This document shows, piece by piece, positions 17,588-64,000 of a stretch of DNA of 64,000 nucleotides. This DNA is from an uncultured Syntrophaceae bacterium (GTDB taxonomy: Bacteria > Desulfobacterota > Syntrophia > Syntrophales > UBA2210): positions 6,751 through 70,750 of the forward strand of contig CAZINZ010000003.1 of the NCBI GenBank assembly GCA_964540715.1. The letters run 5' to 3'. How positions within the stretch are numbered: position 1 is the stretch's first letter; the number at the start of each line of letters is the position of its first letter. Under the pieces are notes generated by a model, which was not told where the DNA came from, did not search any database, and saw only the letters and a list, made by a program, of their open reading frames with translations. The position numbers and the translations under genes were made by a program.

Positions 17588-19009
17588 ATGAAGAAAAAGG
17601 AATTACAAGAACTTGTCAAACAAGGCGAGGGATATTTCGTTGAGTTCAAAAAGCAGGTTGGGGAAAGCCTCGACAGGGAATTGGTTGCCTTTGCCAATGC
17701 ATCTGGGGGAACGATTATCGTAGGAGTCGAGGATGATGGCAGCATTACAGACTGCTCCATTGACAATGCAACACGTTCAAAAGTCCAGGATATTGCCAAT
17801 AACTGCGATCCCCGGATAAAGATACATATCAAGACGGTGCGGCATGAGGGCATAAAATTGCTCGTTATTTCGATTGATGAAAGTCGTGACAAGCCGGTAC
17901 GTTGCTCAAAGGGATTTTTCCTGAGAGAGGGACCTAATTCTCAAAAGTTGACGAGGAATGAAATATTATCCCTTGCCGCAGATGCGGGAAAATTCAAATT
18001 CGATATGCAGGTCTGTAAAGGCTTTGATTATCCAGGAGAATTTGATGATACCGGGTGGCATCGCTTTTTATCTGAAACGGCAATTGCGCCGCCTGAGAAC
18101 AAGGAAGATTTACTGATGAATTTGGGCTTTGCCGAAGAGAAGGAAGGAGTTCAGATTACAAATGCCGGAGCGCTTTTTTTCGGAAAAAATGTTGAATTCT
18201 ATATTCGCCATAGCTTTGTTACCTGCGTACTTTTCAAGGGCACCACAAAAACCAAGATACTCGACCGAAAGGATTTCAAGTCTGACCTACTTTCCAACTA
18301 TGAAAATGCCTTTCGTTTTCTGCAGCAACACCTCAAAATTGAATATATAATTGAAGACGGTGGACCTCGGAAGGAAGTCCCCGAAATTCCCCTGGAAGTT
18401 TTACGGGAAGCGCTTGTAAATGCGATTGTTCATAGAGATTACTTTGAAGAAGGGGCGGGTATCCTTGTTGAAGTTTATGATGATCGTGTTGAAATAACAA
18501 ATCCCGGCCGACTTCTCTTCGACAGCAGTAAATTCGGGAAACTGAGTGTGGCGCGGAATCCTATATTATTCGATGCCTTTCATAGACTTGGAATAACGGA
18601 AAAGATCGGGTCCGGTATCAACAGGATGCGGGAGGCTATGGCTGAAAGAGGAATTGAAATTGCGTTTGATACCGGGGATTTCTTTATTCTCACTCTGGCA
18701 AGACAGACAGCTACTCCGCAAGTCACCGACCAAGTCACCGACCAAGTCACCGACCAAGTCACCGACCAAGTAAGAAAACTGTTGAGGACATTGAAAACAG
18801 GGGAGAAAAACGGCAAAAACCTGGTCGAGGAGTTGAAACTTAAACACAAGCCGACATTCAGAACAAATTACCTCAAACCTGCAATTGAAGCCGGCTTGAT
18901 TGAACTGACCATCCCCGAAAAGCCGAGAAGCCGTTTTCAGAAATACCGACTGACAGATAAAGGAAAAGCGATTTATAATCTGGTAAAACAACATGAACCC
19001 CAAGAATGA
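17588..19009 (+). CDS. AlbA_2 (Schlafen-like) + HATPase_c_4 + C-terminal wHTH protein (family often mis-annotated as RecG-like helicase/transcriptional regulator)
   Basis: 473 aa. The N-terminus reads ELVKQGEGYFVEFKKQV..ELVAFANASGGTIIVGVEDDG. The middle has LREALVNAIVHRDY...VEITNPGRLL. A QVTDQV x4 linker follows, and the C-terminus reads NYLKPAIEAGLIELTIPEKPRSRFQKYRLT. Confidence 0.85.
   Translation: MKKKELQELVKQGEGYFVEFKKQVGESLDRELVAFANASGGTIIVGVEDDGSITDCSIDNATRSKVQDIANNCDPRIKIHIKTVRHEGIKLLVISIDESRDKPVRCSKGFFLREGPNSQKLTRNEILSLAADAGKFKFDMQVCKGFDYPGEFDDTGWHRFLSETAIAPPENKEDLLMNLGFAEEKEGVQITNAGALFFGKNVEFYIRHSFVTCVLFKGTTKTKILDRKDFKSDLLSNYENAFRFLQQHLKIEYIIEDGGPRKEVPEIPLEVLREALVNAIVHRDYFEEGAGILVEVYDDRVEITNPGRLLFDSSKFGKLSVARNPILFDAFHRLGITEKIGSGINRMREAMAERGIEIAFDTGDFFILTLARQTATPQVTDQVTDQVTDQVTDQVRKLLRTLKTGEKNGKNLVEELKLKHKPTFRTNYLKPAIEAGLIELTIPEKPRSRFQKYRLTDKGKAIYNLVKQHEPQE
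18719..18771 (+). repeat. Perfect 12-nt tandem repeat (caagtcaccgac) x4.4 inside the CDS
   Basis: Read directly from the sequence. It encodes (QVTD)n. Confidence 0.95.
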
Positions 19010-35996: not shown

Positions 35997-36407
35997 TTAG
36001 CTCAAGCCCGTCTTGTCCTGACTCTGAAACAAATCAAAGGCATCGTTTACATCAGTGAACTCCAGAGAATGGTTTTTACAACCGTTACGGGAACAGACTT
36101 TTACGGTTCCCCCCTGCTGTAATTGAAACCCGACTATGGGCGCCTTGCATTCACATGTTTGATACACGGGGAAGGGATTCCCGCATTGTGGGCAGAACAG
36201 GGAGCAAATAGCATCCTTAATGTCATCCACACCATCAAATTTTTTGTTATAACTTCCGTAAACCTGACTCAGATAAATGTGACCTGACTTTTTTTCAATC
36301 TTTGTCTCAAGATCTATCGAAGGAAGATCATCAAGCCTGACATCAGGATTCATCAGGGATTTACCACATGCGGGACATTTGACGAGAATTTTAATTGAAC
36401 CAGTCAT
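35997..36407 (-). CDS. Cys-rich (multiple zinc-ribbon-like CxxC) hypothetical protein, last gene of the acyl-CoA cluster
   Basis: 136 aa with CPACG, CPQCG, CEC and CSRNGC motifs. An RBS-like aaggaggttcgat precedes the ATG. No family recognised. Confidence 0.55.
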   Translation of the reverse strand: MTGSIKILVKCPACGKSLMNPDVRLDDLPSIDLETKIEKKSGHIYLSQVYGSYNKKFDGVDDIKDAICSLFCPQCGNPFPVYQTCECKAPIVGFQLQQGGTVKVCSRNGCKNHSLEFTDVNDAFDLFQSQDKTGLS

Positions 36408-38444: not shown

Positions 38445-38822
38445 TCACTCGAATTCATGTGGAAGTGGGTCACCATCGACGTCCTCGTAGACTTCCGGTC
38501 GAAACCGGGGGGTGCAGACGGCGAGGAAAATCAGATCACCTTGACCAAGGTTGGTAATCCGCTGACGGCACGACGGGGGTATGAACACCACGTCTCCGAC
38601 ACTCACATCCCGCGGTGGAAGATTACCGACCTCCGCACGCCCACTACCCTCAAGGATAACGTAACGCTCCACTGTCCCGACTATCCGATGCCACCGCGTG
38701 GTTACCCCAGGTGCGACGCGCACCCGGGCGATAGAGGCGTCCGGGTCATCCGGTGTGTTGGACAGCTCGATAATGTAACATTTTTCGGGAGTGTAAAACT
38801 CCACTCCAGGATTAATGTTCAT
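38445..38822 (-). CDS. Cupin domain protein (start uncertain; the ORF is open to 38942)
   Basis: Single cupin barrel: ARVRVAPGVTTRWHRIVGTVERYVILEGSG...GDVVFIPPSCRQRITNLG. There are several candidate Met starts. Confidence 0.7.
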   Translation of the reverse strand: MNINPGVEFYTPEKCYIIELSNTPDDPDASIARVRVAPGVTTRWHRIVGTVERYVILEGSGRAEVGNLPPRDVSVGDVVFIPPSCRQRITNLGQGDLIFLAVCTPRFRPEVYEDVDGDPLPHEFE

Positions 38823-39089
38823 AACGGCTTCGTTCATTTCATACACAAGTTGACCCCCATCGCAAAGCTCACCCGCCTCCATCACTGCTTGTCCCTGAAC
38901 TTTGAAAAGCCACTTGCTTGAATGCAGGGCAGGACATTTCATAAACCGTAACGCTGCTGGTTGTCAGATAGTGCGATCGAATAGGCTAACTTACTGACAT
39001 AATTACATCTTATAAATAATGGGATACAAACTATTTTGAAAAATAAAGTATTGCGTCCCTGGAATTTCCCCTGGAATTTCTGAGCGTGT

Positions 39090-39845
39090 CTATTTCCCCA
39101 TGAAAACCTGCATAATGGTCAGGGCCTGATTACGGTCTTCCAGACGGATAGCGTCTTCCAGGCTCATCCCTCCCGTGTTCCGGTCCAGCGCTTCTTTCGT
39201 AACCCGGAGACCCAGGGGTGACTTGCCCGCCATGTTCCGGGCCATGGCCATCGCTTCGTCCATCAGATTTTCCGGTTCGTGTATCGCTTGGAGAAATCCT
39301 ATCCTGAGGGCTTCCGAAGCATTCATGAAATCACCCGTCAGGAGATACCGCGCCGCGTTCCCCGTTCCTACGGCGCGCGGCAGGAGCCATGATGCCCCCA
39401 TATCGGCGCCTCCGAAGCCCAGGTTTATATATGCCGCCTGGAATCGCGTCTTTGGCACCCCAAACCTTACATCACAGGCCATGGCAAGGGAGAATCCCGC
39501 CCCCACTGCCACGCCGTTGATCGCCCCAATGATCGGCTGGGGAGTCTGTCTCATGAAAAGAATGAAATCGGAATAAAGACGCTGGTTCTCATAGGCCGAT
39601 TTAGGGGTGTATCCATCCTTCGGACTCATTATCTCCGGGTCCCCGATGTCCAGGCCCGCGCTGAATCCCCGTCCCGCACCTGTGAGCACGAGCACCCTTG
39701 TATCCAGATCATCGATACGCTCTTTCAGGCAGCGGCGAAACTCGTCCCGCATGGTGAAATTGATGGCATTGAGCGAGTCGGGACGGTTCAGTGTAATGAT
39801 TCCGATCGGACCTTCACGTTCAAATGTAATAGTGGTGTAATCCAT
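39090..39845 (-). CDS. Enoyl-CoA hydratase/isomerase (crotonase) family
   Basis: MDYTTITFEREGPIGIITLNRPDSLNA..., GAGRGFSAGLD, INGVAVGAGFSLAMACD. The start is chosen at the Met with a G-rich RBS. Confidence 0.9.
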   Translation of the reverse strand: MDYTTITFEREGPIGIITLNRPDSLNAINFTMRDEFRRCLKERIDDLDTRVLVLTGAGRGFSAGLDIGDPEIMSPKDGYTPKSAYENQRLYSDFILFMRQTPQPIIGAINGVAVGAGFSLAMACDVRFGVPKTRFQAAYINLGFGGADMGASWLLPRAVGTGNAARYLLTGDFMNASEALRIGFLQAIHEPENLMDEAMAMARNMAGKSPLGLRVTKEALDRNTGGMSLEDAIRLEDRNQALTIMQVFMGK

Positions 39846-40027
39846 TGATTTCCCCCCTTTGGATATTGTAATGGTGCCCCAACCATATTCTTTCCGGATT
39901 GGAAATGATGACGTGTTCTTAAAAGGGAGCGCCACCCGGGAAATGGCTGATGAATTCCACTGGAGAAATTGTGCGACGGGACGACGCGCTCAATCATTCC
40001 GGGCAGGCTCCTTCTTGGACGATTTTC

Positions 40028-41020
40028 TTAGTTTGAAATTTTCCCGGACACAAGGGCTATCTGCTCCTCGGCCTCTTTCATCATTCCCTCTACGAGTTCT
40101 TTGCAGGTCATGATCTTGTGGACCAGGCCCACCGACTGTCCCACCATCATGGGGGCCAGATCAACATCCCCTGTTTCCCAAGCTTGAGATATCCGTCCCC
40201 CGGTAATCATGGGAATAATCTCCTCGAGGCTTGCCCCCCTTGCCTCAAGATCCAGAACACCAAGCACATTCTTGTTTTTCAGCGCCCGAGCCTGAAGACC
40301 GATGGACTTGCAGATGAGTGTTGTATCCAGTTCCTGACTGTTGACAAGTTTATTCTTTATATTGTCATGTATATTACATTCCTTGCTCGTCAGAAAGCGG
40401 GTGCCCATCATCACTCCCTGTGCTCCCAGCATCAGGGCCGCCGCCATTGTCTTGCCGTTCGCGATCCCCCCCACGGTAACTACCGGAAGGTTTACCTCTT
40501 CCAAGATTCTCGGCGTGAGCACCATAGTCGTGACATCGTCATTCAGGGGATGCCCCCCCTCTTCAATACCCGCGGCAAATATTCCGTCATACCCCACGCT
40601 TTCGGCATGTCTCGCGTGGCGGACGGAACCCAGCTTGTGAAACATCTTGACCCCGGCCTTCTTGAGCATCTCGATATATTCCATGCCACAGGCCTTGTCG
40701 ATCGGCGTACCCGACATCACTACGGCGGCCACCTGTTCTTCCGCACAGACACGAAGATACATCTTGTAATGCTCGCCGGTAAAGCGAAGCGACGGCAGTG
40801 CGGTGACACTCACAGTAAAGGCATTATCCGTAAGGCTGCGCGTTTCATGTATCGCGGCCCTGAAGGCCTCTTCGGTCTCATAGTTGGCCGCAGTAAGATC
40901 GCCTATGGCTCCGGCGTTGGATATCGCCGCACAGAGGGGAGGTTTGCACAGCCACATCATCGCGCCGCATATAATGGGGTACTTTACGCCGAACATTTCA
41001 GTAATTTCAGTCTTTATCAT
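40028..41020 (-). CDS. NMO family FMN oxidoreductase (nitronate monooxygenase / FabK-like enoyl reductase fold)
   Basis: 330 aa with the typical N-terminus FGVKYPIICGAMMW and VVTVGGIANGKTMAAALMLGAQGVMMGTRF. Confidence 0.85.
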   Translation of the reverse strand: MIKTEITEMFGVKYPIICGAMMWLCKPPLCAAISNAGAIGDLTAANYETEEAFRAAIHETRSLTDNAFTVSVTALPSLRFTGEHYKMYLRVCAEEQVAAVVMSGTPIDKACGMEYIEMLKKAGVKMFHKLGSVRHARHAESVGYDGIFAAGIEEGGHPLNDDVTTMVLTPRILEEVNLPVVTVGGIANGKTMAAALMLGAQGVMMGTRFLTSKECNIHDNIKNKLVNSQELDTTLICKSIGLQARALKNKNVLGVLDLEARGASLEEIIPMITGGRISQAWETGDVDLAPMMVGQSVGLVHKIMTCKELVEGMMKEAEEQIALVSGKISN

Positions 41021-41040
41021 TTACTTCTCCTTTTTATTTT

Positions 41041-42594
41041 TTATCTTGTTATTTTTTTCATGGCCATCTGTGCGGCTATTCGGCCCGACAGGAATGATGA
41101 CTCATAACCATGTCCTATCGAGGCGAATCCGCCGGCAAAATCCAGTCCCTTGATAAACTGTTCCTGCGGCCTCGACATTGATCTTGCCACAACGGAATCC
41201 CACGGATCCTGTTCGTAGGCGTATATGGAGCCCTTGAAGGCGCCGGTATAACGCGCAAAGGTTTGAGGGGTGGCAATCTCGATCTCCTCGATATGATCAG
41301 ACAGGGGGGAACCGAGCGCCTCACTGAACTGGTCAATCATAACTTTCGCGAATTCCTGCTTGAACCGCACATAATTCTCCGGTCTGACATCCTTCCATGT
41401 ATCCGGCCCAGCCAGGGCGGTCATGGAAACAATGGTGGTACCGGGAGGAGAACAATCAGGAATCGCTCTGTTCAGGCATATCGCGGCCTGCATCTCCGGC
41501 GCCTCGAAGGTAAAGTAGTTATCATAGGCCTTCCCGGTATCCATGGAGGCACCGATGAAATACCCGTAACTTTCAATGCCCAGTTCGTCCGGCGAGGCAT
41601 CGAGCCCGAGATACACTACAAAGGCGCTGGCGCCGATCTTCCTGGCATTAACCAGTCTGTACGCATCTTCGGGAACCTTGCGCCTGTCATCAACGAGCCT
41701 GCCATATACCACATTCGGAGACAGGTTGGCTATCACATAATCTGTGCCGATGCGCTCACCGGCGGCAGTTTCCACACCGGCAACCCGGCCGTCCTCCACA
41801 AGAATCTTCGTGACCCTTGTGCTGTACTCCGTCCTTCCGCCCAGTTCTCTGATCCTCGCGTCGATGGCCGCGGACATGCCGTGCGACGTATGACGAGGGA
41901 TATATGCCCCTTTCAGTATGTAGTTATAGAGTACCAGCGCCCATATGGTAAAAGACAGCCGGTTGACCGGAATGCCGAGATAACACCAGTAGGGATATAT
42001 CATGTCCAGCGCCCTGTCCGGTATTCCAAAGGTATCCGTCACCTGTTTTGCCGTATACCCCGCCGTCACCATGAAAGATGGATATTCGTCCATCAGTACT
42101 TTCGGATCGGGCATGCCGTTCATCCTGCTTATATAACCTATGGCGCCGAGTGTCTCCCTGCATGTCTGCATGTATCTTTCAATGGATTTTCGGCTCCCCG
42201 GCACTGCCGCGGCGATCGTATCTGTGAATTTCTCGATCCCGAAGGGAATCTTTATATTGACTCCTTCATCGGAGAGGATCAGGTGATACGCCTCCGGAAC
42301 AGGCATGAATTCAACATCCACCCCTCCCTTATCCTGCAGGAACTTTCTCATGAAGCCTTTATCCTGCTCGGACCCCACATTTGATAATTCGTGAAGGGAT
42401 GGCTCAAACTCGAAACGCCCCCGCACAAAACTGGTGGCAAAACCGCCCGGCAGGTTGTGCTGCTCGAGCAGGAGAACCTTTGCATTATCGAGGGATAACT
42501 GCAGGGCAGCGGAAAGGCCTCCATTTCCTGCGCCTATCACCACCGCATCGTAATACGAATCAAAATGCAGGTTGCTTTTTATATTTTTATTCAT
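41041..42594 (-). CDS. FAD-dependent oxidoreductase of the phytoene desaturase/CrtI-CrtISO-RetSat family
   Basis: 517 aa with a dinucleotide fold (YDAVVIGAGNGGLSAALQLS...LLLEQHNLPGGFATSF) and a C-terminal GGFASIGHGY region. Confidence 0.85.
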   Translation of the reverse strand: MNKNIKSNLHFDSYYDAVVIGAGNGGLSAALQLSLDNAKVLLLEQHNLPGGFATSFVRGRFEFEPSLHELSNVGSEQDKGFMRKFLQDKGGVDVEFMPVPEAYHLILSDEGVNIKIPFGIEKFTDTIAAAVPGSRKSIERYMQTCRETLGAIGYISRMNGMPDPKVLMDEYPSFMVTAGYTAKQVTDTFGIPDRALDMIYPYWCYLGIPVNRLSFTIWALVLYNYILKGAYIPRHTSHGMSAAIDARIRELGGRTEYSTRVTKILVEDGRVAGVETAAGERIGTDYVIANLSPNVVYGRLVDDRRKVPEDAYRLVNARKIGASAFVVYLGLDASPDELGIESYGYFIGASMDTGKAYDNYFTFEAPEMQAAICLNRAIPDCSPPGTTIVSMTALAGPDTWKDVRPENYVRFKQEFAKVMIDQFSEALGSPLSDHIEEIEIATPQTFARYTGAFKGSIYAYEQDPWDSVVARSMSRPQEQFIKGLDFAGGFASIGHGYESSFLSGRIAAQMAMKKITR

Positions 42595-43855
42595 ATCGTT
42601 GTCCCTCCCGCGTTAGAATCCCGGAACTGCCCCCATTTCCACCCGCCACAACACCACCGGTAAGGGGAATCCTGATCTCGAGATCGGAAAGGGGATAGGA
42701 TGAGCAAGGATGAATATAACCAAATTTCTTGTCAGCCGCCCTCCTGCCATCCCCATCCGGCAGTACAAACACATCCCCGGACATCAGGAGTGACCGGCAC
42801 ATGCCGCACTCACCGGCACGGCACTGTGAATCAGGACCGATACCCGCCTTTTCCAGAGATACAAGGACCGTATCCACTCCCTTTGCGGATATGGTCCTGA
42901 CCTTGTTTCCCATCCGAACCACAACCGAAAACGTCCTGTCCTTTGTTTCGCCGGGAAATTCTGGTTCCGACGTGACATCAAACGGTTCGCCGGAAGCCTC
43001 TTGTCTGATCCGTCTTCGCGGGATATCCAGCGCTTCCAGCTCCCTGTCAAGGAATCTATACATCTCCCGGGGCCCGCACACGAAAAAGGTCTTCCCCTTC
43101 ACATCCCCAGTATTCTCCGTTATACACGAGGCGGTTATGAAACCCGACGGACCTCTCCACGTGTTATCCGACTCACTGCACACATAGACGACCCTGAATC
43201 TCTCTGGCTCTCTTGCGGCGTACATATCAAATTCTTTTGAGAAAACCGCGCAATCAGGCGTTCGTATTCCATACAGCAGGGTTATCCTCATATCAAGGTC
43301 CCCGGCGAACATCTCGCGGACCATGGAGCGAATCGGGGTTATTCCGGTCCCCCCTGCAATGGCAACAATATCAAGACTGTCACGGAGGGAATCATAATAA
43401 AAATTCCCATGCGGCCCGGACATATCAACAACAGTGCCATTTTTCCAGAGATCCCATATATGTCCCGTGAGGAAACCTCCCTCTTTTTTCTGGATCGTCA
43501 GCTCATAATAGCCTGAAGATAATGCGTCACAGGAAGAAGACGAAATGGAATAGGGTCTGGTTATCCATGCGTCACCGATCTTTGCCTTGAGACTTACATA
43601 CTGCCCCGGACGAAAGACCGGCAGCCCTATACCGGATCCCGCAGCAGGCTCGAGACGAAACGTCTTTACTGAAGGAGTCTCCTCCCTGACCGCACTCACA
43701 ACGAGTTGAATTCCTTCCGGGTGGAGCATTCTCGACAAATCGCCTATCGGATCTTCCATGTCCGGTAATGGCGACGCCTGCTTTACGCGCTCCTGCCTTT
43801 CGGATACAAGCCCGAAAAAGGCGTTCAGGTCTTTCTCTTTTCCATACACCTCCAT
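42587..43855 (-). CDS. FNR-like FAD/NAD(P)-binding reductase fused to a C-terminal plant-type [2Fe-2S] ferredoxin domain
   Basis: 422 aa with RPYSISS (FAD), AGGTGITP (NAD(P)H) and CRAGECGMCRS...C (Cx4Cx2C). Its stop overlaps the next gene's start by 8 nt (ATGAATAA). Confidence 0.85.
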   Translation of the reverse strand: MEVYGKEKDLNAFFGLVSERQERVKQASPLPDMEDPIGDLSRMLHPEGIQLVVSAVREETPSVKTFRLEPAAGSGIGLPVFRPGQYVSLKAKIGDAWITRPYSISSSSCDALSSGYYELTIQKKEGGFLTGHIWDLWKNGTVVDMSGPHGNFYYDSLRDSLDIVAIAGGTGITPIRSMVREMFAGDLDMRITLLYGIRTPDCAVFSKEFDMYAAREPERFRVVYVCSESDNTWRGPSGFITASCITENTGDVKGKTFFVCGPREMYRFLDRELEALDIPRRRIRQEASGEPFDVTSEPEFPGETKDRTFSVVVRMGNKVRTISAKGVDTVLVSLEKAGIGPDSQCRAGECGMCRSLLMSGDVFVLPDGDGRRAADKKFGYIHPCSSYPLSDLEIRIPLTGGVVAGGNGGSSGILTREGQRYE

Positions 43856-44075: not shown

Positions 44076-45923
44076 TCAAAAACATGCCGCTGAGATCTTC
44101 ACCTTCTCACTGCGAAAAATAGCACTGATTTTTCCAGAATACTTTGGGAATTCCGTGGCAAGCCAGAACTCCGATGCCATGATCTTGCCGTAATAAAAGG
44201 CCGATTCCCTGTCTTCGGCAAGAACATTGTTCAGTTCATCGCCTGTGGAATTGCCGGCAAGGCTCTTCAGTTTAGGTTTCGTAATCGTCAGGCTCCAGAT
44301 GTGCATCCATGCCAGCACAAGATCAAAAACCGCCTTTCGAATTGGATCCACACTCAGAAGAAGGGTGACGAAATTGCCGGAGTCCATATATTCCTTCATA
44401 CGATCAATCACTCCATCAAGTTGTTCAACACCATCGCTGACAGATTCGAGATATATATCGTCGACAATCCCACGGGCATTGTGAACGGTGTCGAGGATTC
44501 TTTTCTTTAAAAGACCATAGTTGTATTGCCCGGGGTTCATCAGGATTTTCCGCATAACCAGGTCAAGAGACTGGATTCCGTTCGTTCCTTCAACTATGGA
44601 GAGTGACTTGCTATCAACGGCAAACTGCTCCACCGGATACTCGGAGCAATAACCGTAACCACCATGAACCTGTATCGCCTCTGCCGTAATCAACCAGGCC
44701 ATATCTGAATTCCCCGCCTTTATTATGGGAACAATGATGTCCACTATGGCCCTTGCCTCTTTCGCGTCTTCTCCATCGAGCAGATGCTGAAGAGTTATCT
44801 GCTGAGATATATAACTGGACAACATCCTTTCCGCTTCCACATATGATTTCATCCAAAGGAGCATTCTCATTACATCGGGATGCTGGATGATGGGCACTCT
44901 CGGTGCCTTGGCATCAAACATTTGCGTTACATGAGCCCCCTGGATTCTTGTCTTTGCATAATCAACGGCCTGCATATAGGAGGCGCTGGAACCGCCAAGC
45001 GCCATGATACCCACCTCAAGCCGGGTTTCATTCAGCATCTTAAACATATTGTTAAGACCTCTTCCCTGCTCTCCGAGAAGGTACCCTGTGCATTTTTCGC
45101 TGTCTCCGAAAGACATTGAACATGTCGCCGCGCCGTGTGCTCCCATTTTTTCCTCTATACCGGCACAGAACACATCGTTTCGCTCACCGAGGGTTTCATC
45201 GTCGTTTATGAGATATTTGGGGACGAGAAAAAGAGAAACCCCCTTTGGTCCGGGAGGATCTCCTTCCACCCGTGCGAGGACGGGATATATAATCTGCTTC
45301 GTAATATCCTGATCACCATTTGTAATAAAACACTTCTGACCCGTGATGAGATAGGTTCCATCCGGTTGTCTCAGGGCCTTTGATTTCAATGCACCCACAT
45401 CGGAACCCGCCTCCGGTTCCGTCAGACACATGGTTCCACCCCATTCACCGGAGAGTATCCTGGGAACATAGAGCTTTTTCTGCTCCTCATTCCCGAAATT
45501 CTGAATCATGATTGCCGCGCCGTGATTCAGCATGAAAAAGAGCATGAGGGCTCCACCGGCACCGCAAAATATTTCCCAGCAGGACGATTGAATCGCCAGG
45601 GGCATCCCCGCACCCTCAATAGCCGGATCATCGGAGATTGACAAAAATCCCGCCTCCAGCAGGGCACGGGAGGCATCCTTATATCCCGAAGGAAGCCGGA
45701 CCGATTTTGCCTCCCTGTCATAGATACACCCCTCTTTATGCCCCGCCACATTTGCGGGAAAAATCTGTTCCACAGCAACCTTCTCCGCAAGCCTTATCGT
45801 GCCTTCATAGATATCCCTGTCAAAACCTTCATATTGAGGGTATCGACTCAGCTTCTCGATCTCCAAAAATTCAAACAGATTAAACTGGATATCCCTCATA
45901 TCAACCAGATACTTCTGTGCCAT
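44076..45923 (-). CDS. Long-form acyl-CoA dehydrogenase (paralogue 2)
   Basis: 615 aa with the same architecture as 36450-38261 and 51085-52950 (GTMCLTEPEAGSDV, GYGYCSEYPVEQF). Confidence 0.9.
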   Translation of the reverse strand: MAQKYLVDMRDIQFNLFEFLEIEKLSRYPQYEGFDRDIYEGTIRLAEKVAVEQIFPANVAGHKEGCIYDREAKSVRLPSGYKDASRALLEAGFLSISDDPAIEGAGMPLAIQSSCWEIFCGAGGALMLFFMLNHGAAIMIQNFGNEEQKKLYVPRILSGEWGGTMCLTEPEAGSDVGALKSKALRQPDGTYLITGQKCFITNGDQDITKQIIYPVLARVEGDPPGPKGVSLFLVPKYLINDDETLGERNDVFCAGIEEKMGAHGAATCSMSFGDSEKCTGYLLGEQGRGLNNMFKMLNETRLEVGIMALGGSSASYMQAVDYAKTRIQGAHVTQMFDAKAPRVPIIQHPDVMRMLLWMKSYVEAERMLSSYISQQITLQHLLDGEDAKEARAIVDIIVPIIKAGNSDMAWLITAEAIQVHGGYGYCSEYPVEQFAVDSKSLSIVEGTNGIQSLDLVMRKILMNPGQYNYGLLKKRILDTVHNARGIVDDIYLESVSDGVEQLDGVIDRMKEYMDSGNFVTLLLSVDPIRKAVFDLVLAWMHIWSLTITKPKLKSLAGNSTGDELNNVLAEDRESAFYYGKIMASEFWLATEFPKYSGKISAIFRSEKVKISAACF

Positions 45924-46100: not shown

Positions 46101-46907
46101 TTAGCTCTTACTGAAAGATTGTATGAGCTTAAAAAATTCTCCTGAGAAGACCATTATCGCTTGATTACGGTTTTCGACGTTAACGGCCGCCTCAAGTGAA
46201 GGCGCGTCGATATTCTGGTCGAGGACACGCTTGGTCAGCTTCAGAGCCCCGAAGCTCTTGGCAGTCATCAGACGCGCGTGGGACAGGGCCTCATCAATCA
46301 GTTCCTCCCGCGGGACCACTTTGTTAACAAGTCCGATCTTTTCGGCCTCTTCCGCCCGCACCTTTCTCCCGGTAAGGAGAATCTCGCTGGCCCGTGCGAG
46401 GCCCACGAGGCGGGGCAAATAATAAGAGCATCCCAACTCGCCACCTGAAAGCCCGATATTGATAAAAGAAGCGATAAAACAGGCTTCAGGCGAAGCAAAC
46501 CTGATGTCGCTCGCCAGCGTCATGGCAAAACCTCCCCCTGCAGCCGCTCCGTTAACCGCCGATATTATGGGCTGAGGAATTTTTCTCATACCGAGAATCA
46601 GGCTGGAATATCTCTCCTGAACAATCTTGAGAAACAGTTCCGGATCGGCAAAGGCATCCGTATCTTTATGGGACATCGCATCATTGAGATCTGCGCCAGA
46701 GCAATAGGCCTTTCCCGCCCCCGTTATTATCAGCACCTTGAACGTGCACTCATAATCAGATAGAATCCGGAATAATTCATCAAACTCAGCCAGCATCTCC
46801 ACACTTTGAGCATTTAATTGTTCCGGCCGATTCAACGTCACAAGACCGATGGACGGTTCCACCTCTTCAAAGGTAAATGTGTTAAATTTTTTCATATCGT
46901 TTGTCAT
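46101..46907 (-). CDS. Enoyl-CoA hydratase/isomerase family
   Basis: 268 aa with VTLNRPEQLNA, GAGKAYCSGADL and VNGAAAGGGFAMTLASD. The TAATG overlap with the upstream ligase gene suggests translational coupling. Confidence 0.9.
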   Translation of the reverse strand: MTNDMKKFNTFTFEEVEPSIGLVTLNRPEQLNAQSVEMLAEFDELFRILSDYECTFKVLIITGAGKAYCSGADLNDAMSHKDTDAFADPELFLKIVQERYSSLILGMRKIPQPIISAVNGAAAGGGFAMTLASDIRFASPEACFIASFINIGLSGGELGCSYYLPRLVGLARASEILLTGRKVRAEEAEKIGLVNKVVPREELIDEALSHARLMTAKSFGALKLTKRVLDQNIDAPSLEAAVNVENRNQAIMVFSGEFFKLIQSFSKS

Positions 46908-48583
46908 TACTTCTCTTCCCTCTTCTTTTTATCTGTCTCTCTGAGTTCTCTTCTCAGAATCTTGCCGATGGCGCTTTTGGGAAGTTCATCGATAAACTCT
47001 ATTTCTTTCGGAACTTTGTAGGCCGCCAATTTCTCCCTGCAATAGGAGGTGACCTCTTCCTTCGTCAGGGTTTCTCCCGGTTTCACAATAATGTAGGCCT
47101 TGACGGTTTCTCCCCTGTACTCATCGGGAACGCCTATACAGCACGCCTCCATGATTTTGGGGTGGGAAAAGAGCATGTCGTCTATCTCGTTCGGATAGAT
47201 ATTGAAGCCGCTCGCCACAATCAGGTCTTTCTTTCTGTCTGAAATGGTCAGATAACCGTCCTCGTCAAGATATCCGATGTCTCCTATGTAAAACCAGCCG
47301 TCTCTTATCGTCGCTGCGGTTTCTTCCGGCTTCTTGTAATACCCCTTCATAACCTGTGGCCCTTTTATGCAGATCTCACCGGCCTCTCCGATGGGGAGTT
47401 CCTGCGTTCCCGTTTCAAGGTCAACGATCTTCAGATCCGTGTTCGGGAGCGGAATACCCACCGTTCCCCTCTTAACCGTTCCACCCCACGGCGTCATCGT
47501 CGCAAAGGCGGTATTCTCCGTTGCTCCGAACACATCATAGATAATCGCACCATGCAGTTCCTTCAGCTGATTGAGCGTATCTTCGGGAAGCGGGGCGGCC
47601 CCTCCGAAGTATCCCTTTACAAATGAAAGATCCATCTCTCTGAATCTCTTGTCTCTCAGGAGTCCCGTATAAATCGTAGGAACGCCGGGGAGGAATGTCG
47701 GCTTGAACTTCCGGAGCATCTCGATTATCGCGTTTGGCTCCGGCTTCGGAACGAGAATACATGACCATCCGTTCATTATCGGCATGTTCTGACTTACCGA
47801 ATATCCCGCCGAGTGAAATATGGGATAGATTCCCATCAGGCTTTGTTCCGTATCCTTCAGATCGGGAAACCACGCGGCAAACTGCTGCATTATACCGGAT
47901 ATATTCGCGTGGGTCAGCATGGCCCCCTTACTGACACCCGTCGTGCCCCCCGTATAGATCAGGGCTGCCACATCGTCCCAACGGGCCAGATTCTCCACGG
48001 GAGCATCAGAATATCGCTTGATTAAATCCATAAACTGATAGACGCCCTCTTGAGGCTCTACCTTCCTGTGCATACCCTTTTTAACAAACGGAAATAACTG
48101 TTTTATCGGAAAGGGCAGGTAGTCATTTATGTGGCACGTAATGATAGTCTTAATTTTTGTCTTATCCTTCAGTTTAAGCGCGCGCGGAAGGAGAAGATCG
48201 AGGGTCACCAGAACTGTGGCATCGGAATCATTAAGCTGATGTTCCAGCTCACTTTCCGTATAGAGGGGATTGGTCATAGCTGTCACCCCGCCCACCCTGT
48301 ACGTGGCATGATCGGCGATGATAATCTGTGGTATATTGGGAAGCAGCATGGCGACCTTGTCACCTGGTTTTACGCCAAGATCGAGAAACGCCCTGGTAAA
48401 ACGGTTTACCATCTTTTCCAGTGCACCGAAGGTAATCTTCGTTCCCATGTAGATGAATCCTACGCGATCGGGATATTTCTTTGCCGTCCGGGTAAGCGCT
48501 TCGGCCATGGTAACCTTTTCGATATCGATCTCGGCAGGAACCCCCGGCGCATACGACTTGTGCCATAATTTTTCTACAGACAT
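46907..48583 (-). CDS. Long-chain-fatty-acid--CoA ligase (AMP-binding superfamily)
   Basis: 558 aa with the AMP motif IYTGGTTGVSKGAMLTH, then GYLDEDGYLTISDRKKD, and GKILRR at the C-terminus. Confidence 0.9.
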   Translation of the reverse strand: MSVEKLWHKSYAPGVPAEIDIEKVTMAEALTRTAKKYPDRVGFIYMGTKITFGALEKMVNRFTRAFLDLGVKPGDKVAMLLPNIPQIIIADHATYRVGGVTAMTNPLYTESELEHQLNDSDATVLVTLDLLLPRALKLKDKTKIKTIITCHINDYLPFPIKQLFPFVKKGMHRKVEPQEGVYQFMDLIKRYSDAPVENLARWDDVAALIYTGGTTGVSKGAMLTHANISGIMQQFAAWFPDLKDTEQSLMGIYPIFHSAGYSVSQNMPIMNGWSCILVPKPEPNAIIEMLRKFKPTFLPGVPTIYTGLLRDKRFREMDLSFVKGYFGGAAPLPEDTLNQLKELHGAIIYDVFGATENTAFATMTPWGGTVKRGTVGIPLPNTDLKIVDLETGTQELPIGEAGEICIKGPQVMKGYYKKPEETAATIRDGWFYIGDIGYLDEDGYLTISDRKKDLIVASGFNIYPNEIDDMLFSHPKIMEACCIGVPDEYRGETVKAYIIVKPGETLTKEEVTSYCREKLAAYKVPKEIEFIDELPKSAIGKILRRELRETDKKKREEK

Positions 48584-59253: not shown

Positions 59254-60162
59254 TTAGCTCAGCAACGGGCCCAGCTCACCGAACATATCAAAAACCTGAT
59301 TAAAAAATTTCGGATTTTCGAGGCTCGTGATCTTTTCCCAGTTTTCCATAATCTCCTCGGGAGTGGGAATTTTATCACCATCCGAGAGTACCGCGCCCGG
59401 ACCGGTCATTATCGCGCTTCTGCTGAAATAACCGAGAGCTGCATTGATCATAACTCCGGAGTCCTCACACTGCTCTGAACACAGGTAGAGTATCAGAGGA
59501 GAGATTAATTCCGGTTTTAATTTGGCAAAAAGGTCGGGCGGCAGAACATCTTCCGTAAGCCGTGAAGCGGCAACAGGAATCAGGACATTGGTCTTGATAT
59601 TGTACTTGGCTCCCTCAAGCTTCAACACATTGGTAAGCCCGGCAATACCCGCCTTGGCCGCAGAGTAATTCGCCTGACCAAAGTTACCGAACAGACCGGC
59701 ACCAGAAGTCGTCATCACGATTCTTCCATATCCGTTTTCACGCATATTGATAAAGGCCGGTTTCGTAACACAGTAAGCCCCCTTCAAATGAACCCCCACA
59801 ACGGCATCCCAGTTCTCCTCTTCCAGTTTATGAAAGGCACTGTCTCTCAGAATGCCGGCGTTATTCACGAGGATATCGACCTTGCCGAATGCGTCGATGG
59901 CTGTCTGGACTATACCCTTTCCCCCTTCAACAGTCGCCACATTGTCATAGTTCGGTACCGCTTCACCGCCGAGGGCCTTTATCTCTTCAACCACTTTATC
60001 CGCCGCCGCGTCACTCGACCCGACTCCGTCCCTTGTACCGCCAAGGTCGTTTACTACCACCTTCGCCCCCCTCTTCGCGAATTCAAGGGCATGGCTTCGT
60101 CCAAGGCCGGCGCCAGCGCCGGTCACAATAGCAACTCTGCCTGTAAAATCAATCTTCGACAT
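59254..60162 (-). CDS. Short-chain dehydrogenase/reductase resembling the (3R)-hydroxyacyl-CoA dehydrogenase domain of MFE-2
   Basis: 302 aa. VAIVTGAGAGLGRSHALEFAKRGAKVVVNDLGG...VDILVNNAGILRD...YSAAKAG is the MFE-2/HSD17B4-type pattern, including the C-terminal extension. Confidence 0.8.
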   Translation of the reverse strand: MSKIDFTGRVAIVTGAGAGLGRSHALEFAKRGAKVVVNDLGGTRDGVGSSDAAADKVVEEIKALGGEAVPNYDNVATVEGGKGIVQTAIDAFGKVDILVNNAGILRDSAFHKLEEENWDAVVGVHLKGAYCVTKPAFINMRENGYGRIVMTTSGAGLFGNFGQANYSAAKAGIAGLTNVLKLEGAKYNIKTNVLIPVAASRLTEDVLPPDLFAKLKPELISPLILYLCSEQCEDSGVMINAALGYFSRSAIMTGPGAVLSDGDKIPTPEEIMENWEKITSLENPKFFNQVFDMFGELGPLLS

Positions 60163-60213
60163 ACTCAGATCCTCCTTTATCGTTTTTATTTAAATGGGTC
60201 TGATCTATTTTTT

Positions 60214-60651
60214 CTATTTGATTGGGAGAGACGCCTCGAAATGACCAGTTATCTTGACGTCACCATTCTCATCCTTTGCAATCACCTCGCAGGAAACAAT
60301 GTTTTCCCCGTCCTCAGCACGCTTATCCGTCACGGCACCGCTGACGGTAATTGTGCTGTTTTTTTGAGTCATACCGGCAAACCGAACACCGAATTTTTTC
60401 AGATACTTCTGAGGAAACCAAGCCGTAATTGCCTGACCGACAATGCCCATAACCAGCATACCATGCGATATAACACCGTTTTTCATACCCACCGCCATGG
60501 CAAACTCATCGTCATTATGAAGAGGGTTAAAGTCACCGGACGCCCCTGCATACATAACGAATTGAAGCTTCTGGAGAGGGCCCTTTACCAGCTCGGGCAT
60601 GACGTCGCCCACATTGACGTCTTCAAAATACATTTGCTCTGCCATCATCAA
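60214..60651 (-). CDS. MaoC-like (R)-specific enoyl-CoA hydratase, C-terminal-type hot-dog subunit
   Basis: 145 aa with YAGASGDFNPLHNDDEFA (hydratase-2 motif context). Confidence 0.85.
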   Translation of the reverse strand: MMMAEQMYFEDVNVGDVMPELVKGPLQKLQFVMYAGASGDFNPLHNDDEFAMAVGMKNGVISHGMLVMGIVGQAITAWFPQKYLKKFGVRFAGMTQKNSTITVSGAVTDKRAEDGENIVSCEVIAKDENGDVKITGHFEASLPIK

Positions 60652-60656
60652 CCCCC

Positions 60657-61106
60657 CTATTTTCTTTCAATGAGCAGCGATCTGGCTTTTGCAACCTTTT
60701 CGCCTCTCTGATTTGTATAGAGTACTTCCATGGAAATCAGATCCATCTTGGAACCGGATTTGCTGGTTTTCTCTTCCATCTTCGTTATCTTCGGGGTACC
60801 GGTAATCACGTCCCCGGGATACATCAGCTGATAGTATTCGTACTCTTCCTCACCATGGAGCACCATCATAAAATTGATCTTCAGGTCGCCAATAATAGCG
60901 GGCATCTGATCACACCACATCATGGGAACGGTTAAAAACGTCGGCGTAGCCGGGATATCTTTGTAGCCTGCCTGTATCGCGGCATCCTTGTCGAGATAGA
61001 CCGGGTTAGGATCTCCTATTGCCTTCGCCATTTCCCTTATCTTGCCTCTTTCCACCTCCCACGTAATGGGAGCATACTCTACACCGGTTTTTGATAAATC
61101 AGCCAT
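60657..61106 (-). CDS. MaoC_dehydrat_N-type hot-dog subunit (partner of the preceding hydratase)
   Basis: 149 aa with ITWEVERGKIREMAKAIGDPNPVY. There is a 5-nt gap to the next gene, giving a heteromeric hydratase layout like ChsH1/ChsH2 or HadAB. Confidence 0.8.
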   Translation of the reverse strand: MADLSKTGVEYAPITWEVERGKIREMAKAIGDPNPVYLDKDAAIQAGYKDIPATPTFLTVPMMWCDQMPAIIGDLKINFMMVLHGEEEYEYYQLMYPGDVITGTPKITKMEEKTSKSGSKMDLISMEVLYTNQRGEKVAKARSLLIERK

Positions 61107-61139
61107 AAGGTTACCTCCTTTTTTAAAGGTTTCTACATC

Positions 61140-62348
61140 TTACCCATCATATTTTCCGATAATGCCTATACTGCAGACATTCAGCATCGGAAATCCACCG
61201 AGATTATGGGTCAGTCCAAACTTCGGATCTTTCAGTTGCCGGTCGCCAGCCCTTCCGTGAAGCTGCAGATACATTTCGTAGAGCATGCGAAGTCCCGATG
61301 CACCGATGGGATGACCAAAACATTTCAGGCCACCGTCGACCTGGCAGGGAATCTTGCCGTCCATATCGTAGAAACCGTCCATAATATCCTTGGGCGCCTG
61401 ACCACGCTCGGAGATGTGCAGGTCTTCCATGGTAACCAGCTCCGTAATGGAGAAACAGTCATGAACTTCCATCATGCTGATCTCTTCCCTTGGATTGGTA
61501 ATGCCCGCCTCTTTGTAGGCTTCGGTACTTGCCTTGGTCGTTGTCACAAAATGGGCACCATCCCAGTCACTGTATCCCATCTCGGTCCCGTTACTGAGTG
61601 ACAACTGGAGGGCCTTTACCGATACCAGATCTTTTTTGCCCAGGGACTTGGCTATTTCAGGGGTTGTTACGATGGCAGCGGCGGAACCGTCGCTGACACC
61701 ACAACAGTCAAAGAGTCCCAGGGGATATGCAATTTGCGGTGAATTGAGTACCTGCTCCTCTGTCACGGCTTTTCTCAGATGTGCCTTCGGATTCAGGACT
61801 CCATTCGCATGACTCTTCACCGATACATGCGCCATGGCCCTTTTGACATCACTCATATCAAGACCGTATTTCGCGGCATAGCCCGTGGCCAGCATGGCAA
61901 AGCATCCCGGTGCCGTCGCATTCGGAAAGTATAAATAGTTTCTCGTCCCCATGGCGCTGCTGAACTCGGGCAGACCGCCATATCCGATGTCTTTTAGTTT
62001 TTCTACACCGATGGCAAGAGCGATATCACAAGCGCCGGAGGCCACTGCGTACACCGCACCCCGAAAGGCCTCCGTACCACTGGCACAAAAGTTTTCCACG
62101 CGGGTCACCGCGATGTTGGGAAGGCGCAACGCAAGCGATGCAGGAAGGGCACTCTTTCCTACATCCACCTCATCGAAACAGGATCCCAGCCATGCGGCCC
62201 CAATCTGTTTTCTTTCGATTCCCGCGTCTGCGAGACACTCTTCGAAAGCTTCAACCATCAACTCTTCGGGACCGTCATTCCATCGTTCACCGAATTTCGA
62301 ACATCCCATGCCTATAATAGCTACTTTATCTCGAATTCCTGTTGCCAT
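61140..62348 (-). CDS. SCP-x / nonspecific lipid-transfer-protein-type thiolase
   Basis: The start is set at MATGIRDKVAIIGMG, preceded by GGAGGAGG. Motifs include NFCASGTEAF (active-site Cys), EVHDCFS and GHPIGASG. Confidence 0.88.
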   Translation of the reverse strand: MATGIRDKVAIIGMGCSKFGERWNDGPEELMVEAFEECLADAGIERKQIGAAWLGSCFDEVDVGKSALPASLALRLPNIAVTRVENFCASGTEAFRGAVYAVASGACDIALAIGVEKLKDIGYGGLPEFSSAMGTRNYLYFPNATAPGCFAMLATGYAAKYGLDMSDVKRAMAHVSVKSHANGVLNPKAHLRKAVTEEQVLNSPQIAYPLGLFDCCGVSDGSAAAIVTTPEIAKSLGKKDLVSVKALQLSLSNGTEMGYSDWDGAHFVTTTKASTEAYKEAGITNPREEISMMEVHDCFSITELVTMEDLHISERGQAPKDIMDGFYDMDGKIPCQVDGGLKCFGHPIGASGLRMLYEMYLQLHGRAGDRQLKDPKFGLTHNLGGFPMLNVCSIGIIGKYDG

Positions 62349-62349
62349 G

Positions 62350-63813
62350 TTATTCACCTCCTCCAATCTGCGGAACAGCCTTCCAGAAGTATCCCGTAAA
62401 GCCTCTCTCTTTATCGTAATTTCTCTTTCTGAAAGACATCTTCGCCGGCATACCCACCTTTACCTGATCGAGACTGCAATCGGTAAAGTCGACAAAGGCC
62501 TTGCCGCCACCTTCAAATTCGACCAAACCGTATATTGCGGGTGGATCCACCGATGCTGAAAGCATGTCGCCAGTGTACATACCTACTTTACAGCCCACAT
62601 TGGAGAATTCGTAGTCTTCGAAATCATGGGATGACCAGCAGTCGGGATTCACGCACACAGGCATCGTAGGAAATTGAGGCGTGCCGCATTTGTTGCATTT
62701 TGAACCGACCATGCCGAGCACCATCTTGCGGTCTCTCCACAGGGCCGTCAGTGACGTGTTCACAGATTGCTCGCCTCTTATTCCCAGATCGGCTATTATC
62801 AGGTCTCTGAACTTGGTGAACTTCTGATAACTGGACAGCTCAACCCTGTTTGCAAGCGACCCCTTAATACCCACCGGAGCCTTGTAGTCTTTAATCTTGT
62901 CGGTCACTTCGAATGCCAGGACATCACACCCCTGACCAAAACTGGCGACCAGTATCTTGTCTCCCGGCTTCGCTCCTTCCAGTGCCGTAACCAACATAAC
63001 AAAGGGATGCGCCGTTCCGGTATCACCGCATACGTTATGCATATTATCCTGCACTTTTTCAGCATCAACACCCAGTTTCTTCGCGATATCGCGATGGGTC
63101 CTACTGAAATAACAGGGATATACCACCTTGTCGAATTCCTCGATCTTCATTCCTGTCTTTTTCAGGAAACCGGCGACTGCCTGAGGAATAATTTTCCCGT
63201 ATCCCTCATCTCTCATCCACCGCTCTTCCCAGCCATAATCAAAGGTCTTGCCCTGGCCTCTGTAATGATCTACAAAGTCGCAGTTTACCGAATAGCTCCC
63301 CTTGAATTCCGCTATCACATCATCCTTGCCAAACAGAAGAGCCGCCGCGCCATCACCGTAAAACATTTCAAACATGGTGGCCATTTTCGTTGTACGCAGA
63401 TCGGTCGCAGTAACGAGAACGCTGTCTTTGTTCCCCGACTCGATAGCATCCAGAGCCGAGAGGGCAGCCGTTGTTGCCGACTTTGTACAGGAAGTGAAAT
63501 CGGCGTTTGTCACATCCTCTTCTCTCATGTTAAGTGCCGCGGCAACGATACCCGAATTAAGTCTGTCCGCAAAGGGCAGTGTTGTTGACGCAAGATACAG
63601 GGCGTCAAGCGCCTTTCTGTCCTTGTTCGTCATACAATCACGAGCTGCCGCAACCGCCATACTGACGGCGTCTTCGTCCCAGTTGGCCACCGATTTTTCC
63701 CCACCGGCAACTGCCATAATGACGGGAAAATACCAGGCCATGTTCTGGACGACAACCATCCTGCTGAGCCTGTAGCGAGGGATATACCCCCCATAGGATG
63801 TAATGCCTACCAT
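62350..63813 (-). CDS. HMG-CoA synthase-like (thiolase-fold) domain fused to a C-terminal DUF35 OB-fold/zinc-ribbon domain
   Basis: The start is at MVGITSYGGYIPRYRL, preceded by GGAGAGGAGG. The N-domain has GGEKSVANWDEDAVSMA and FTSCTKSAT. The C-domain has GSKCNKCGTPQFPTMPVCVNPDC...GLVEFEGGGKAFVDF...VKVGMPAKMSFRK, which is typical DUF35. Confidence 0.8.
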   Translation of the reverse strand: MVGITSYGGYIPRYRLSRMVVVQNMAWYFPVIMAVAGGEKSVANWDEDAVSMAVAAARDCMTNKDRKALDALYLASTTLPFADRLNSGIVAAALNMREEDVTNADFTSCTKSATTAALSALDAIESGNKDSVLVTATDLRTTKMATMFEMFYGDGAAALLFGKDDVIAEFKGSYSVNCDFVDHYRGQGKTFDYGWEERWMRDEGYGKIIPQAVAGFLKKTGMKIEEFDKVVYPCYFSRTHRDIAKKLGVDAEKVQDNMHNVCGDTGTAHPFVMLVTALEGAKPGDKILVASFGQGCDVLAFEVTDKIKDYKAPVGIKGSLANRVELSSYQKFTKFRDLIIADLGIRGEQSVNTSLTALWRDRKMVLGMVGSKCNKCGTPQFPTMPVCVNPDCWSSHDFEDYEFSNVGCKVGMYTGDMLSASVDPPAIYGLVEFEGGGKAFVDFTDCSLDQVKVGMPAKMSFRKRNYDKERGFTGYFWKAVPQIGGGE

Positions 63814-64000
63814 ACTAAATCCTCCTCTCCTGTTTTTAGTTTCTGTTTCTAAAAAAAATTCATTTCTGGATGAACGCCAATTAAAACATGCACCCGCACC
63901 TTGAAGTGGAACAGACTCACCCCGGATATCCAATGATCCTCCTGCAAGTCTCCACAATCATCTATTGCTGAAAAACAAGTGTGTTATACAAAATCGAGGA

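Follow-up and report, generated by a model that had tools for sequence, protein, structure and literature searches.

Within a 64,000-nt stretch of the genome of an uncultured Syntrophaceae bacterium (contig CAZINZ010000003.1 of assembly GCA_964540715.1, positions 6,751 to 70,750; hereafter the window), a gene for an FNR-type reductase with a C-terminal ferredoxin domain overlaps a gene for a flavoenzyme of the CrtI fold, and a gene for an NMO/FabK-like enzyme follows closely. This locus raises the question of whether a reductase resembling those of oxygenase systems serves as the electron donor of a CrtI-like enzyme, and of what such a chain would do among genes of acyl-CoA metabolism. We conclude with high confidence that the first two genes (42587-43855 and 41041-42594) encode a two-component electron chain in which an NAD(P)H site, an FAD and a [2Fe-2S] cluster lead to a second flavoprotein. 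An earlier sequence-only reading had proposed that a CrtI-like enzyme of acyl-CoA metabolism is served by its own electron chain; this proposal is partly supported, in that the chain has two components and not three.

The three open reading frames (ORFs) and their junctions are listed below. Their positions, the overlap and the spacer with its own AGGAGA are exactly those that the earlier reading had given.

42587-43855, minus strand: reductase of the FNR type that ends in a plant-type [2Fe-2S] ferredoxin domain (protein 1, 422 aa), assigned by Pfam and motifs; electron-donor subunit
41041-42594, minus strand: CrtI-fold (COG1233/amine-oxidase superfamily) FAD enzyme (protein 2, 517 aa), assigned by Pfam and the fold of its AlphaFold2 (AF2) model; presumed catalytic subunit
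40028-41020, minus strand: NMO/FabK-like FMN enzyme (protein 3, 330 aa), assigned by Pfam NMO; genus-specific accessory outside the conserved pair
42587-42594, minus strand: 8-nt overlap ATGAATAA of the reductase stop and the flavoenzyme start, read directly in the DNA; translational coupling
41021-41040, minus strand: 20-nt spacer with AGGAGA before the NMO gene, read directly in the DNA

A scan for promoters and terminators returned counts at the level of shuffled sequences. None of the three proteins contains a hydrophobic 19-mer with a Kyte-Doolittle mean above 1.5, and no membrane span is predicted.

Conservation and fusion of the gene pair

An alignment of 17 protein 2 homologues was used to collect 80 loci in genomes of GTDB species, and look-ups with single homologues added three more, for a set of 83. 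Homologues of proteins 1 and 2 were directly adjacent on the same strand in 82 of the 83 loci, and the sole non-adjacent locus (L049) is cut by a contig end. The gap between the aligned segments of paired genes was at most 150 nt, with a median of 51 nt. Identities across these loci were 35-73%, and the carriers include Syntrophaceae, Thermodesulfobacteriota, a Bacteriovoracaceae metagenome-assembled genome (MAG), many families of Bacillota, Limosilactobacillus, Bacteroidota (Phocaeicola and Muribaculaceae), Spirochaetes and the Promethearchaeia (Asgard archaea). The flavoenzyme gene precedes the reductase gene in 82 pairs, and the order of the window, with the reductase first, was found in three. 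A single COG1233 gene stands beside the reductase gene in 79 of the 82 loci, while each of the other three carries two complete pairs, placed in tandem in Promethearchaeia (L005) and Mogibacterium (L066) and divergently in a member of the Clostridia (L045).

The two proteins also occur as single chains. In-frame fusions of reductase to flavoenzyme (~940 aa) are encoded in loci L092 and L093 and are of the same type as a 916-aa ORF in L004, and fusions in the opposite order (~900 aa) are encoded in L108 and L114. An exhaustive search of 1.84 billion representatives (50% clustering) with a cut-off of E <= 1e-30 recovered 469 representatives of the flavoenzyme family. Among the 150 best-scoring of these, nine were fusions of 851-918 aa. 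Pfam detected the CrtI-like domain and partner domains in all nine; FAD_binding_6, NAD_binding_1 and Fer2 were complete in five, and the remaining four fell short of one or two partner domains at E <= 1e-6.

With 85 adjacent same-strand pairs in several phyla, plus natural fusions, the pairing of the two genes is not due to chance. That the two genes are obligate neighbours in both Bacteria and Archaea, and have fused repeatedly in either order, argues strongly for the FNR-[2Fe-2S] protein as the flavoenzyme's dedicated redox partner, a partnership that had been suspected from the single locus.

The host genome carries a second pair (contig C6:44693-47402, also seen as L085 and as L088:14693-17402), 35-37% identical to that of the window and with the flavoenzyme gene first. 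It follows genes for an enoyl-CoA hydratase/isomerase (ECH) family protein, a Hydrolase_4 lipase-like protein, a glycerol kinase and another alpha/beta-hydrolase, and a MerR gene comes after it. A third COG1233 paralogue of 549 aa (C6:33803-35452; L088:3803-5452) is 26-27% identical to the flavoenzyme of the window, and no FNR-type partner was found within its 1.5-kb flanks. The partner link of the flavoenzyme seems to stop at roughly 30% identity.

Domain content of the two proteins

Protein 1 contains the Pfam domains FAD_binding_6 (residues 52-154), NAD_binding_1 (166-269) and Fer2 (320-388). The motifs previously noted, RPYSISS, GGTGITP and Cx4Cx2C, were located at residues 100-106, 168-174 and 345-353 (C345-x4-C350-x2-C353), and C384 supplies the fourth cysteine. 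Its domain order is that of the class IA reductases of the phthalate dioxygenase reductase (PDR)/VanB type, but the Rieske-oxygenase partner of that class is missing: no gene for a Rieske protein, P450, desaturase or other oxygenase was found among the annotated neighbours of the three genes, in keeping with what had been claimed. The best NCBIfam equivalogs, GbcB, PaaE and Hcr, matched protein 1 with 114-126 bits against cut-offs of 383-500, a three- to four-fold shortfall.

Protein 2 belongs to the CrtI/amine-oxidase superfamily, as it matched Pfam Amino_oxidase (PF01593) over residues 26-509 with 52 bits (cut-off 19.8) and has the FAD Rossmann motif GxGxxG at residues 21-26. Its best NCBIfam match was the carotenoid isomerase model carot_isom/CrtISO (TIGR02730; residues 15-460), with 110.2 bits against a cut-off of 586.9, followed by crtI_fam (TIGR02734; 95.3 bits, or 94.7 in the search of the whole genome, against 238.1) and the CrtD models NF045637, NF042421 and TIGR02733 (71-87 bits against 500-580). 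The crtI_fam cut-off was passed by no protein of the host genome and was passed in 5 of 14 control genomes. Of the solved structures, CrtD (E = 1.6e-15) and CrtI (E = 4e-8) come closest to protein 2 in sequence. The AF2 model of protein 2 (pLDDT 81.7) gave CrtD (4rep) as its best PDB match in a Foldseek search (E = 2e-27, TM 0.78/0.82, 19% identity), with CrtI, an archaeal structural-genomics protein and amine oxidases next. Profiles and fold search bear out the earlier description of a CrtI-like flavoprotein, and protein 2 falls into no characterised CrtI, CrtISO or CrtD family, every curated threshold for these having been missed. The family has a strongly conserved N-terminal motif, R-G-R-F-E-F-E-x-S-L-H, whose histidine corresponds to H68 of protein 2; this residue is invariant in 17 close homologues and kept in 78% of 111 representatives.

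Acyl-CoA gene context

The three genes lie within a minus-strand run of acyl-CoA genes that spans ~36.4-64 kb of the window (28 kb), with housekeeping genes upstream of 36 kb. The run encodes three long and two ordinary acyl-CoA dehydrogenases (ACADs), four ECH proteins, three acyl-CoA ligases, a family III CoA-transferase and a TetR regulator, along with a short-chain dehydrogenase/reductase (SDR), a split MaoC hydratase, an SCPx-type thiolase and an HMGCS-like/DUF35 fusion. This annotation of the flanking ACAD, ECH, ligase, CoA-transferase, SDR, MaoC and thiolase genes agrees with the beta-oxidation setting that had been proposed. The genes that bear most on the pair are the following.

44076-45923, minus strand: long (615 aa) ACAD just upstream of the pair (Pfam Acyl-CoA_dh_N/M/1/C), with a 70% identical colinear orthologue in locus L001
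46101-46907, minus strand: ECH protein (Pfam ECH_1), with an 83% identical colinear orthologue in L001
46907-48583, minus strand: long-chain-fatty-acid-CoA-ligase-like enzyme (Pfam AMP-binding); its best NCBIfam matches are long-chain-fatty-acid--CoA ligases, below cut-off
39090-39935, minus strand: ECH protein (Pfam ECH_1), downstream of the NMO gene
59254-63957, minus strand: SDR-to-DUF35 gene set, including the SDR (Pfam, NCBIfam), which accompanies the pair in Bacillota islands
60214-60651 and 60657-61106, minus strand: split MaoC hydratase (Pfam)
61140-62366, minus strand: SCPx-type thiolase (Pfam/NCBIfam), with a 67% identical orthologue in L119
62350-63957, minus strand: HMGCS-like/DUF35 fusion (Pfam/NCBIfam), with a 47% identical orthologue in L119

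Much of this context recurs with the pair in other genomes. A deltaproteobacterial MAG (L001) is colinear with the window across the ligase (77% identity), ECH (83%), long ACAD (70%), reductase (57%) and flavoenzyme (73%) genes. In Bacillota contigs L002, L118, L119 and L120, a single operon encodes SDR, MaoC, HMGCS-like/DUF35, thiolase, ECH, flavoenzyme, reductase and ligase, and in L002, L118 and L119 a MerR or TetR regulator gene lies upstream of it. The products of this operon are 44-67% identical to the SDR (50% in L119), HMGCS-like/DUF35 protein, thiolase, flavoenzyme, reductase and ligase 46907-48583 of the window. The ligase travels with the pair across phyla: its orthologue in L119 is 62% identical, and a ligase gene directly follows the pair in L002, L117, L118, L119 and L120, with a lipase-like hydrolase gene upstream of the pair in L117. 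The archaeal loci L064 and L083 also have ligase, ECH and SCPx-type thiolase genes with the pair. Outside the clade of the window the surroundings of the pair vary, and the sole recurrent neighbours were FadR-type GntR regulators (10 loci), TetR (7) and LysR (5) regulators, FadH-like flavoenzymes (4) and lipase-like hydrolases (3). The link of the pair to fatty-acyl metabolism is solid for the window's clade (57-73% identity) and suggestive for the family as a whole.

The host genome (2.5 Mb, 47% GC, ~97% complete), whose nearest named relatives are MAGs of Syntrophales/Syntrophaceae, is that of a beta-oxidation specialist, with ~31 ligase, 22 ACAD and 18 ECH loci. A role of the pair as a stand-in for a missing FadH was ruled out, as this genome has three FadH-like genes.

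Several further features of these loci were recorded. In the window, the thiolase and HMGCS-like/DUF35 (zf-ChsH2/OB) genes (61140-63957) overlap by 17 nt, and the latter product scored 211 bits against the HMGCS model (cut-off 244). Two loci of the Syntrophales type have a gene for a calcineurin-like metallophosphoesterase directly upstream of the reductase (L001:6503-7156) or of the fusion (L004:3649-4476), which the window lacks. Among the beta-oxidation genes downstream of the trio, the window encodes a 165-aa cupin (38445-38942) and a 136-aa protein (35997-36407) whose sole match, to a zinc ribbon, is faint. A stretch of low GC content at 16001-19009 (37% versus ~47-50%) may be a mobile or defence-related insert; it encodes a 473-aa protein in which Schlafen AlbA_2, HATPase_c_4 and Fic-like_C domains are combined.

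Predicted reaction of the pair

What the electron chain does is less certain than that it exists. We propose that the pair uses NAD(P)H to saturate a double bond of an acyl chain (unsaturated fatty, methyl-branched or isoprenoid), a proposal whose chances of being correct we consider about even. The FAD of the FNR module would accept hydride from NAD(P)H, and the C-terminal [2Fe-2S] cluster would relay single electrons to the flavin of the CrtI-fold subunit. The reduced flavin would then saturate a C=C bond of a lipophilic acyl chain. The substrate would be an unsaturated fatty acid, perhaps methyl-branched or isoprenoid, as such or as its CoA ester, and the saturated chain would proceed through the enzymes encoded nearby (ligase, hydratases, dehydrogenases and thiolase). 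The double bond would give a syntrophic or fermentative anaerobe an internal electron sink, and its saturation would clear an obstacle to beta-oxidation.

Three parts of this scheme are predictions: which way the electrons run, that the double bond is saturated, and which substrate is used. Flow toward the flavoenzyme is expected because FNR-[2Fe-2S] proteins of the same domain order (PDR, PaaE, Hcr and GbcB) deliver electrons from NAD(P)H. A reductive direction is favored because the carriers are fermenters, syntrophs and Asgard archaea without obvious high-potential acceptors, and because NAD(P)+ would be unable to take electrons from C-H oxidation. An acyl-chain substrate is suggested by the gene context. 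The predicted chemistry has its basis in RetSat, a saturase, and CrtISO, a reduced-FAD-dependent isomerase, which share one branch of the CrtI superfamily.

That branch also brings in the first alternative, in which the CrtI-fold subunit would isomerize C=C bonds, cis-trans or by position, with no net redox change, as CrtISO does. It would need a reduced flavin, and the partner would give it only catalytic, (re)activating electrons. The carotenoid isomerase model is the best curated match of protein 2, cis-unsaturated chains require isomerization in beta-oxidation, and limonene dehydrogenase, a relative, reportedly requires reductive activation, as Puentes-Cala is said to have described in 2018. 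The match to that model nevertheless falls far short of its cut-off, and the cluster already has many ECH-family candidates for an isomerase. A stoichiometric partner, adjacent in every case and fused in many, also suits a continuous flow of electrons better than occasional activation. We consider an isomerase unlikely.

The Bacillota operons point to another possibility, in that they place the pair amid ligase, MaoC, ECH, SDR and thiolase/DUF35 genes with no ACAD gene. Here the pair would be an NAD(P)H-dependent alpha,beta-enoyl-CoA reductase, acting in reverse beta-oxidation or supplying the redox step in islands without an ACAD. A combination of thiolase/DUF35, SDR, MaoC and enoyl reductase is also the make-up proposed for ACP-independent fatty-acid synthesis in archaea. 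The window itself has five ACADs around the pair, however, and most family members are found in genomes and loci without CoA-ester genes. Run oxidatively, from acyl-CoA to NAD(P)+, the reaction would be strongly uphill. On balance this function appears quite improbable.

The third alternative reverses the flow. Like limonene dehydrogenase CtmAB or the steroid delta-24 desaturase, the pair would desaturate an isoprenoid or alkyl chain, or hydroxylate it at an allylic position, without O2, and would pass the electrons out by way of the [2Fe-2S] cluster and FAD. In Castellaniella defragrans, the genes for the COG1233 enzymes CtmA and CtmB cluster with those for a 2Fe-2S ferredoxin (CtmE) and an NADH:ferredoxin oxidoreductase (CtmF), and growth on limonene requires each of ctmA, ctmB and ctmE (PMC4109377). 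A covalent-FMN motif, G-F-[LR]-x-[NS]-[TL]-H-A, has been reported for CtmAB and for the steroid delta-24 desaturase of Sterolibacterium denitrificans (PMC11061730). The H68 motif of the present family (F-E-x-S-L-H; F63-E-P-S-L-H68-E in protein 2) matches four of the seven specified positions, including the widely kept histidine. The pair nevertheless has a single COG1233 subunit and no alpha-beta heterodimer, and its partner is an NAD(P)-linked FNR protein, where the potential of NAD(P)+ would be too low for electrons from C-H oxidation. Its carriers, moreover, are organisms without high-potential respiratory chains. We regard an oxidative role as highly improbable.

Returning to the saturation of an acyl-chain double bond, several points weigh against this proposal. 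Among the COG1233 systems characterized so far, the only ones that have a related flavin site or a chain through a ferredoxin, CtmAB and the delta-24 desaturase, run in the oxidative direction, and it is their covalent-flavin site that the H68 motif partly resembles. A literature search found no biochemical data on, or description of, any member of the pair family. The host genome has, besides its three FadH-like enzymes, many ECH paralogues to deal with double bonds. Most loci outside the clade of at least 57% identity have no lipid genes nearby and only a regulator gene or unrelated genes, such as those for glycosidases, and the absence of lipid genes near most distant loci implies that the flavoenzyme family may have several substrates.

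The NMO/FabK-like gene

The third gene had been read as part of a three-gene module that encodes an NMO-family enzyme related to FabK. The family assignment was confirmed by Pfam NMO (E = 2e-49, 169 bits against a cut-off of 28), and the best PDB relatives are PA1024 and FabK (187-195 bits to 7l00, 2gjl and 6e2a), but protein 3 falls below the FabK equivalog cut-off, with 246 bits against TIGR03151 where 453.1 would be required. The module fared less well when its conservation was followed across genomes. Homologues of protein 2 are present in 24 of 60 relatives examined, and an NMO gene directly follows the pair only in L089, L090 and L094, which are of the same genus and carry 83-90% identical orthologues (NMO identity 79-95%). 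The obligate three-component system of FNR-ferredoxin, CrtI-like and NMO proteins is barely credible, even though the NMO gene starts 20 nt downstream with its own ribosome-binding site and is retained in those three genomes, given that no NMO gene lies beside the pair in L091-L093 (66-73% identical orthologues) or within 10 kb of it in 81 of the 83 wider loci, the two exceptions being ~9 kb away on the opposite strand.

The relatives of protein 3 have associations of their own. Its subfamily (68-76% identity) is common in Deltaproteobacteria, Syntrophales and Spirochaetota. In Desulfoluna a member lies beside genes for an ACAD and the electron-transfer flavoprotein, and a Spirochaetota contig has one next to a FadH-like gene, a TetR gene and another NMO gene. 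In MAG GCA_016933965.1, the pair (L001; 73% identity) and a 74% identical NMO orthologue (L127) are on separate contigs, with the NMO gene beside an acyl-CoA ligase gene. The host genome has seven NMO paralogues. Protein 3 is probably an NAD(P)H-dependent enoyl-thioester reductase, co-transcribed as a genus-specific addition and not a component of the pair. IpdC, an NMO-family enoyl-CoA reductase of steroid catabolism, offers a lead for its function, though only a lead.

Implications

The handling of long-chain fatty and isoprenoid double bonds by strict anaerobes is poorly resolved at the level of genes, as are the hydrogenating enzymes of the rumen, the gut and digesters. The pair provides a widespread and experimentally tractable candidate, especially in its natural single-chain fusions, and its electron supply is unusual within the CrtI superfamily. 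The window adds a link between the pair and a beta-oxidation gene set that is common, gene for gene, to unrelated Bacillota. A broader and rather doubtful suggestion, which we offer tentatively, is that the pair and its fusions supply a missing activity of anoxic habitats, an NAD(P)H-dependent hydrogenase that acts on unactivated C=C bonds in long-chain unsaturated (or isoprenoid) fatty acids. If this were true, the pair would explain how syntrophic digesters turn oleate and linoleate into saturated acids, as well as the reductive steps of biohydrogenation in the rumen and gut, and it would define a new class of self-sufficient saturases common to Bacteria and Asgard archaea.

Comparison with known systems

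Protein 1 shares its flavin, NAD and C-terminal [2Fe-2S] order with the class IA oxygenase reductases PDR/VanB, PaaE, Hcr and GbcB, along with their role of passing single electrons from NAD(P)H on to a partner. Its partner, however, is a CrtI-fold flavoprotein and not a Rieske or di-iron oxygenase or a hybrid-cluster protein. Protein 1 also differs from these reductases by an additional conserved N-terminal stretch of ~45 residues, as alignments to its homologues begin at query residues 1-9.

For protein 2, the carotenoid desaturases CrtD and CrtI (PDB 4rep and 4dgk) are the closest solved structures, yet only at 15-19% identity. These desaturases have no FNR-[2Fe-2S] partner, whereas protein 2 has one, and no carotenoid genes lie near its locus. 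RetSat and CrtISO share the fold of protein 2, and the latter provides its best profile match (carot_isom, 110 bits against a cut-off of 587), but they act on retinoids and carotenoids, in contrast to the acyl-CoA context of protein 2. We know of no dedicated reductase partner for either RetSat or CrtISO. For protein 3, the enoyl-ACP reductase II FabK and the NADH:quinone reductase PA1024 are likewise NMO-family FMN TIM barrels; protein 3 differs from FabK in its location in a catabolic acyl-CoA cluster. Two other enzymes were considered as relatives and rejected as unrelated: the isoprene reductase of Acetobacterium is a GltD/NfnB-like Fe-S flavoprotein, and the cholestenone reductase SpiE is an SDR.

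A further close parallel is the Ctm system. The sequence-only reading had known of no characterized system of this composition; while the exact pair was indeed not found in the literature, ctmABEF does join COG1233 enzymes, a ferredoxin and a reductase (PMC4109377). Compared by published description, CtmABEF resembles the pair in the genetic link of a COG1233/phytoene-dehydrogenase-like flavoenzyme with a [2Fe-2S] carrier and a flavoprotein reductase that is NAD(P)H-linked. Further likenesses are the O2-independent action of CtmAB and the delta-24 desaturase on a lipophilic chain beside a double bond, upstream of a beta-oxidation-like route, as is predicted for the pair, and a histidine at a comparable N-terminal position. 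Both are, however, alpha-beta heterodimers of two paralogous COG1233 subunits with a covalent flavin and an oxidative reaction, either hydroxylation or desaturation, whereas the pair has one catalytic subunit. The Ctm ferredoxin and reductase are separate proteins, the reductase not being described as FNR-type, while the pair combines both functions in a fused FNR-[2Fe-2S] protein. Finally, the pair is often fused into one chain and its carriers are strict anaerobes, both of which set it apart from the Ctm system.

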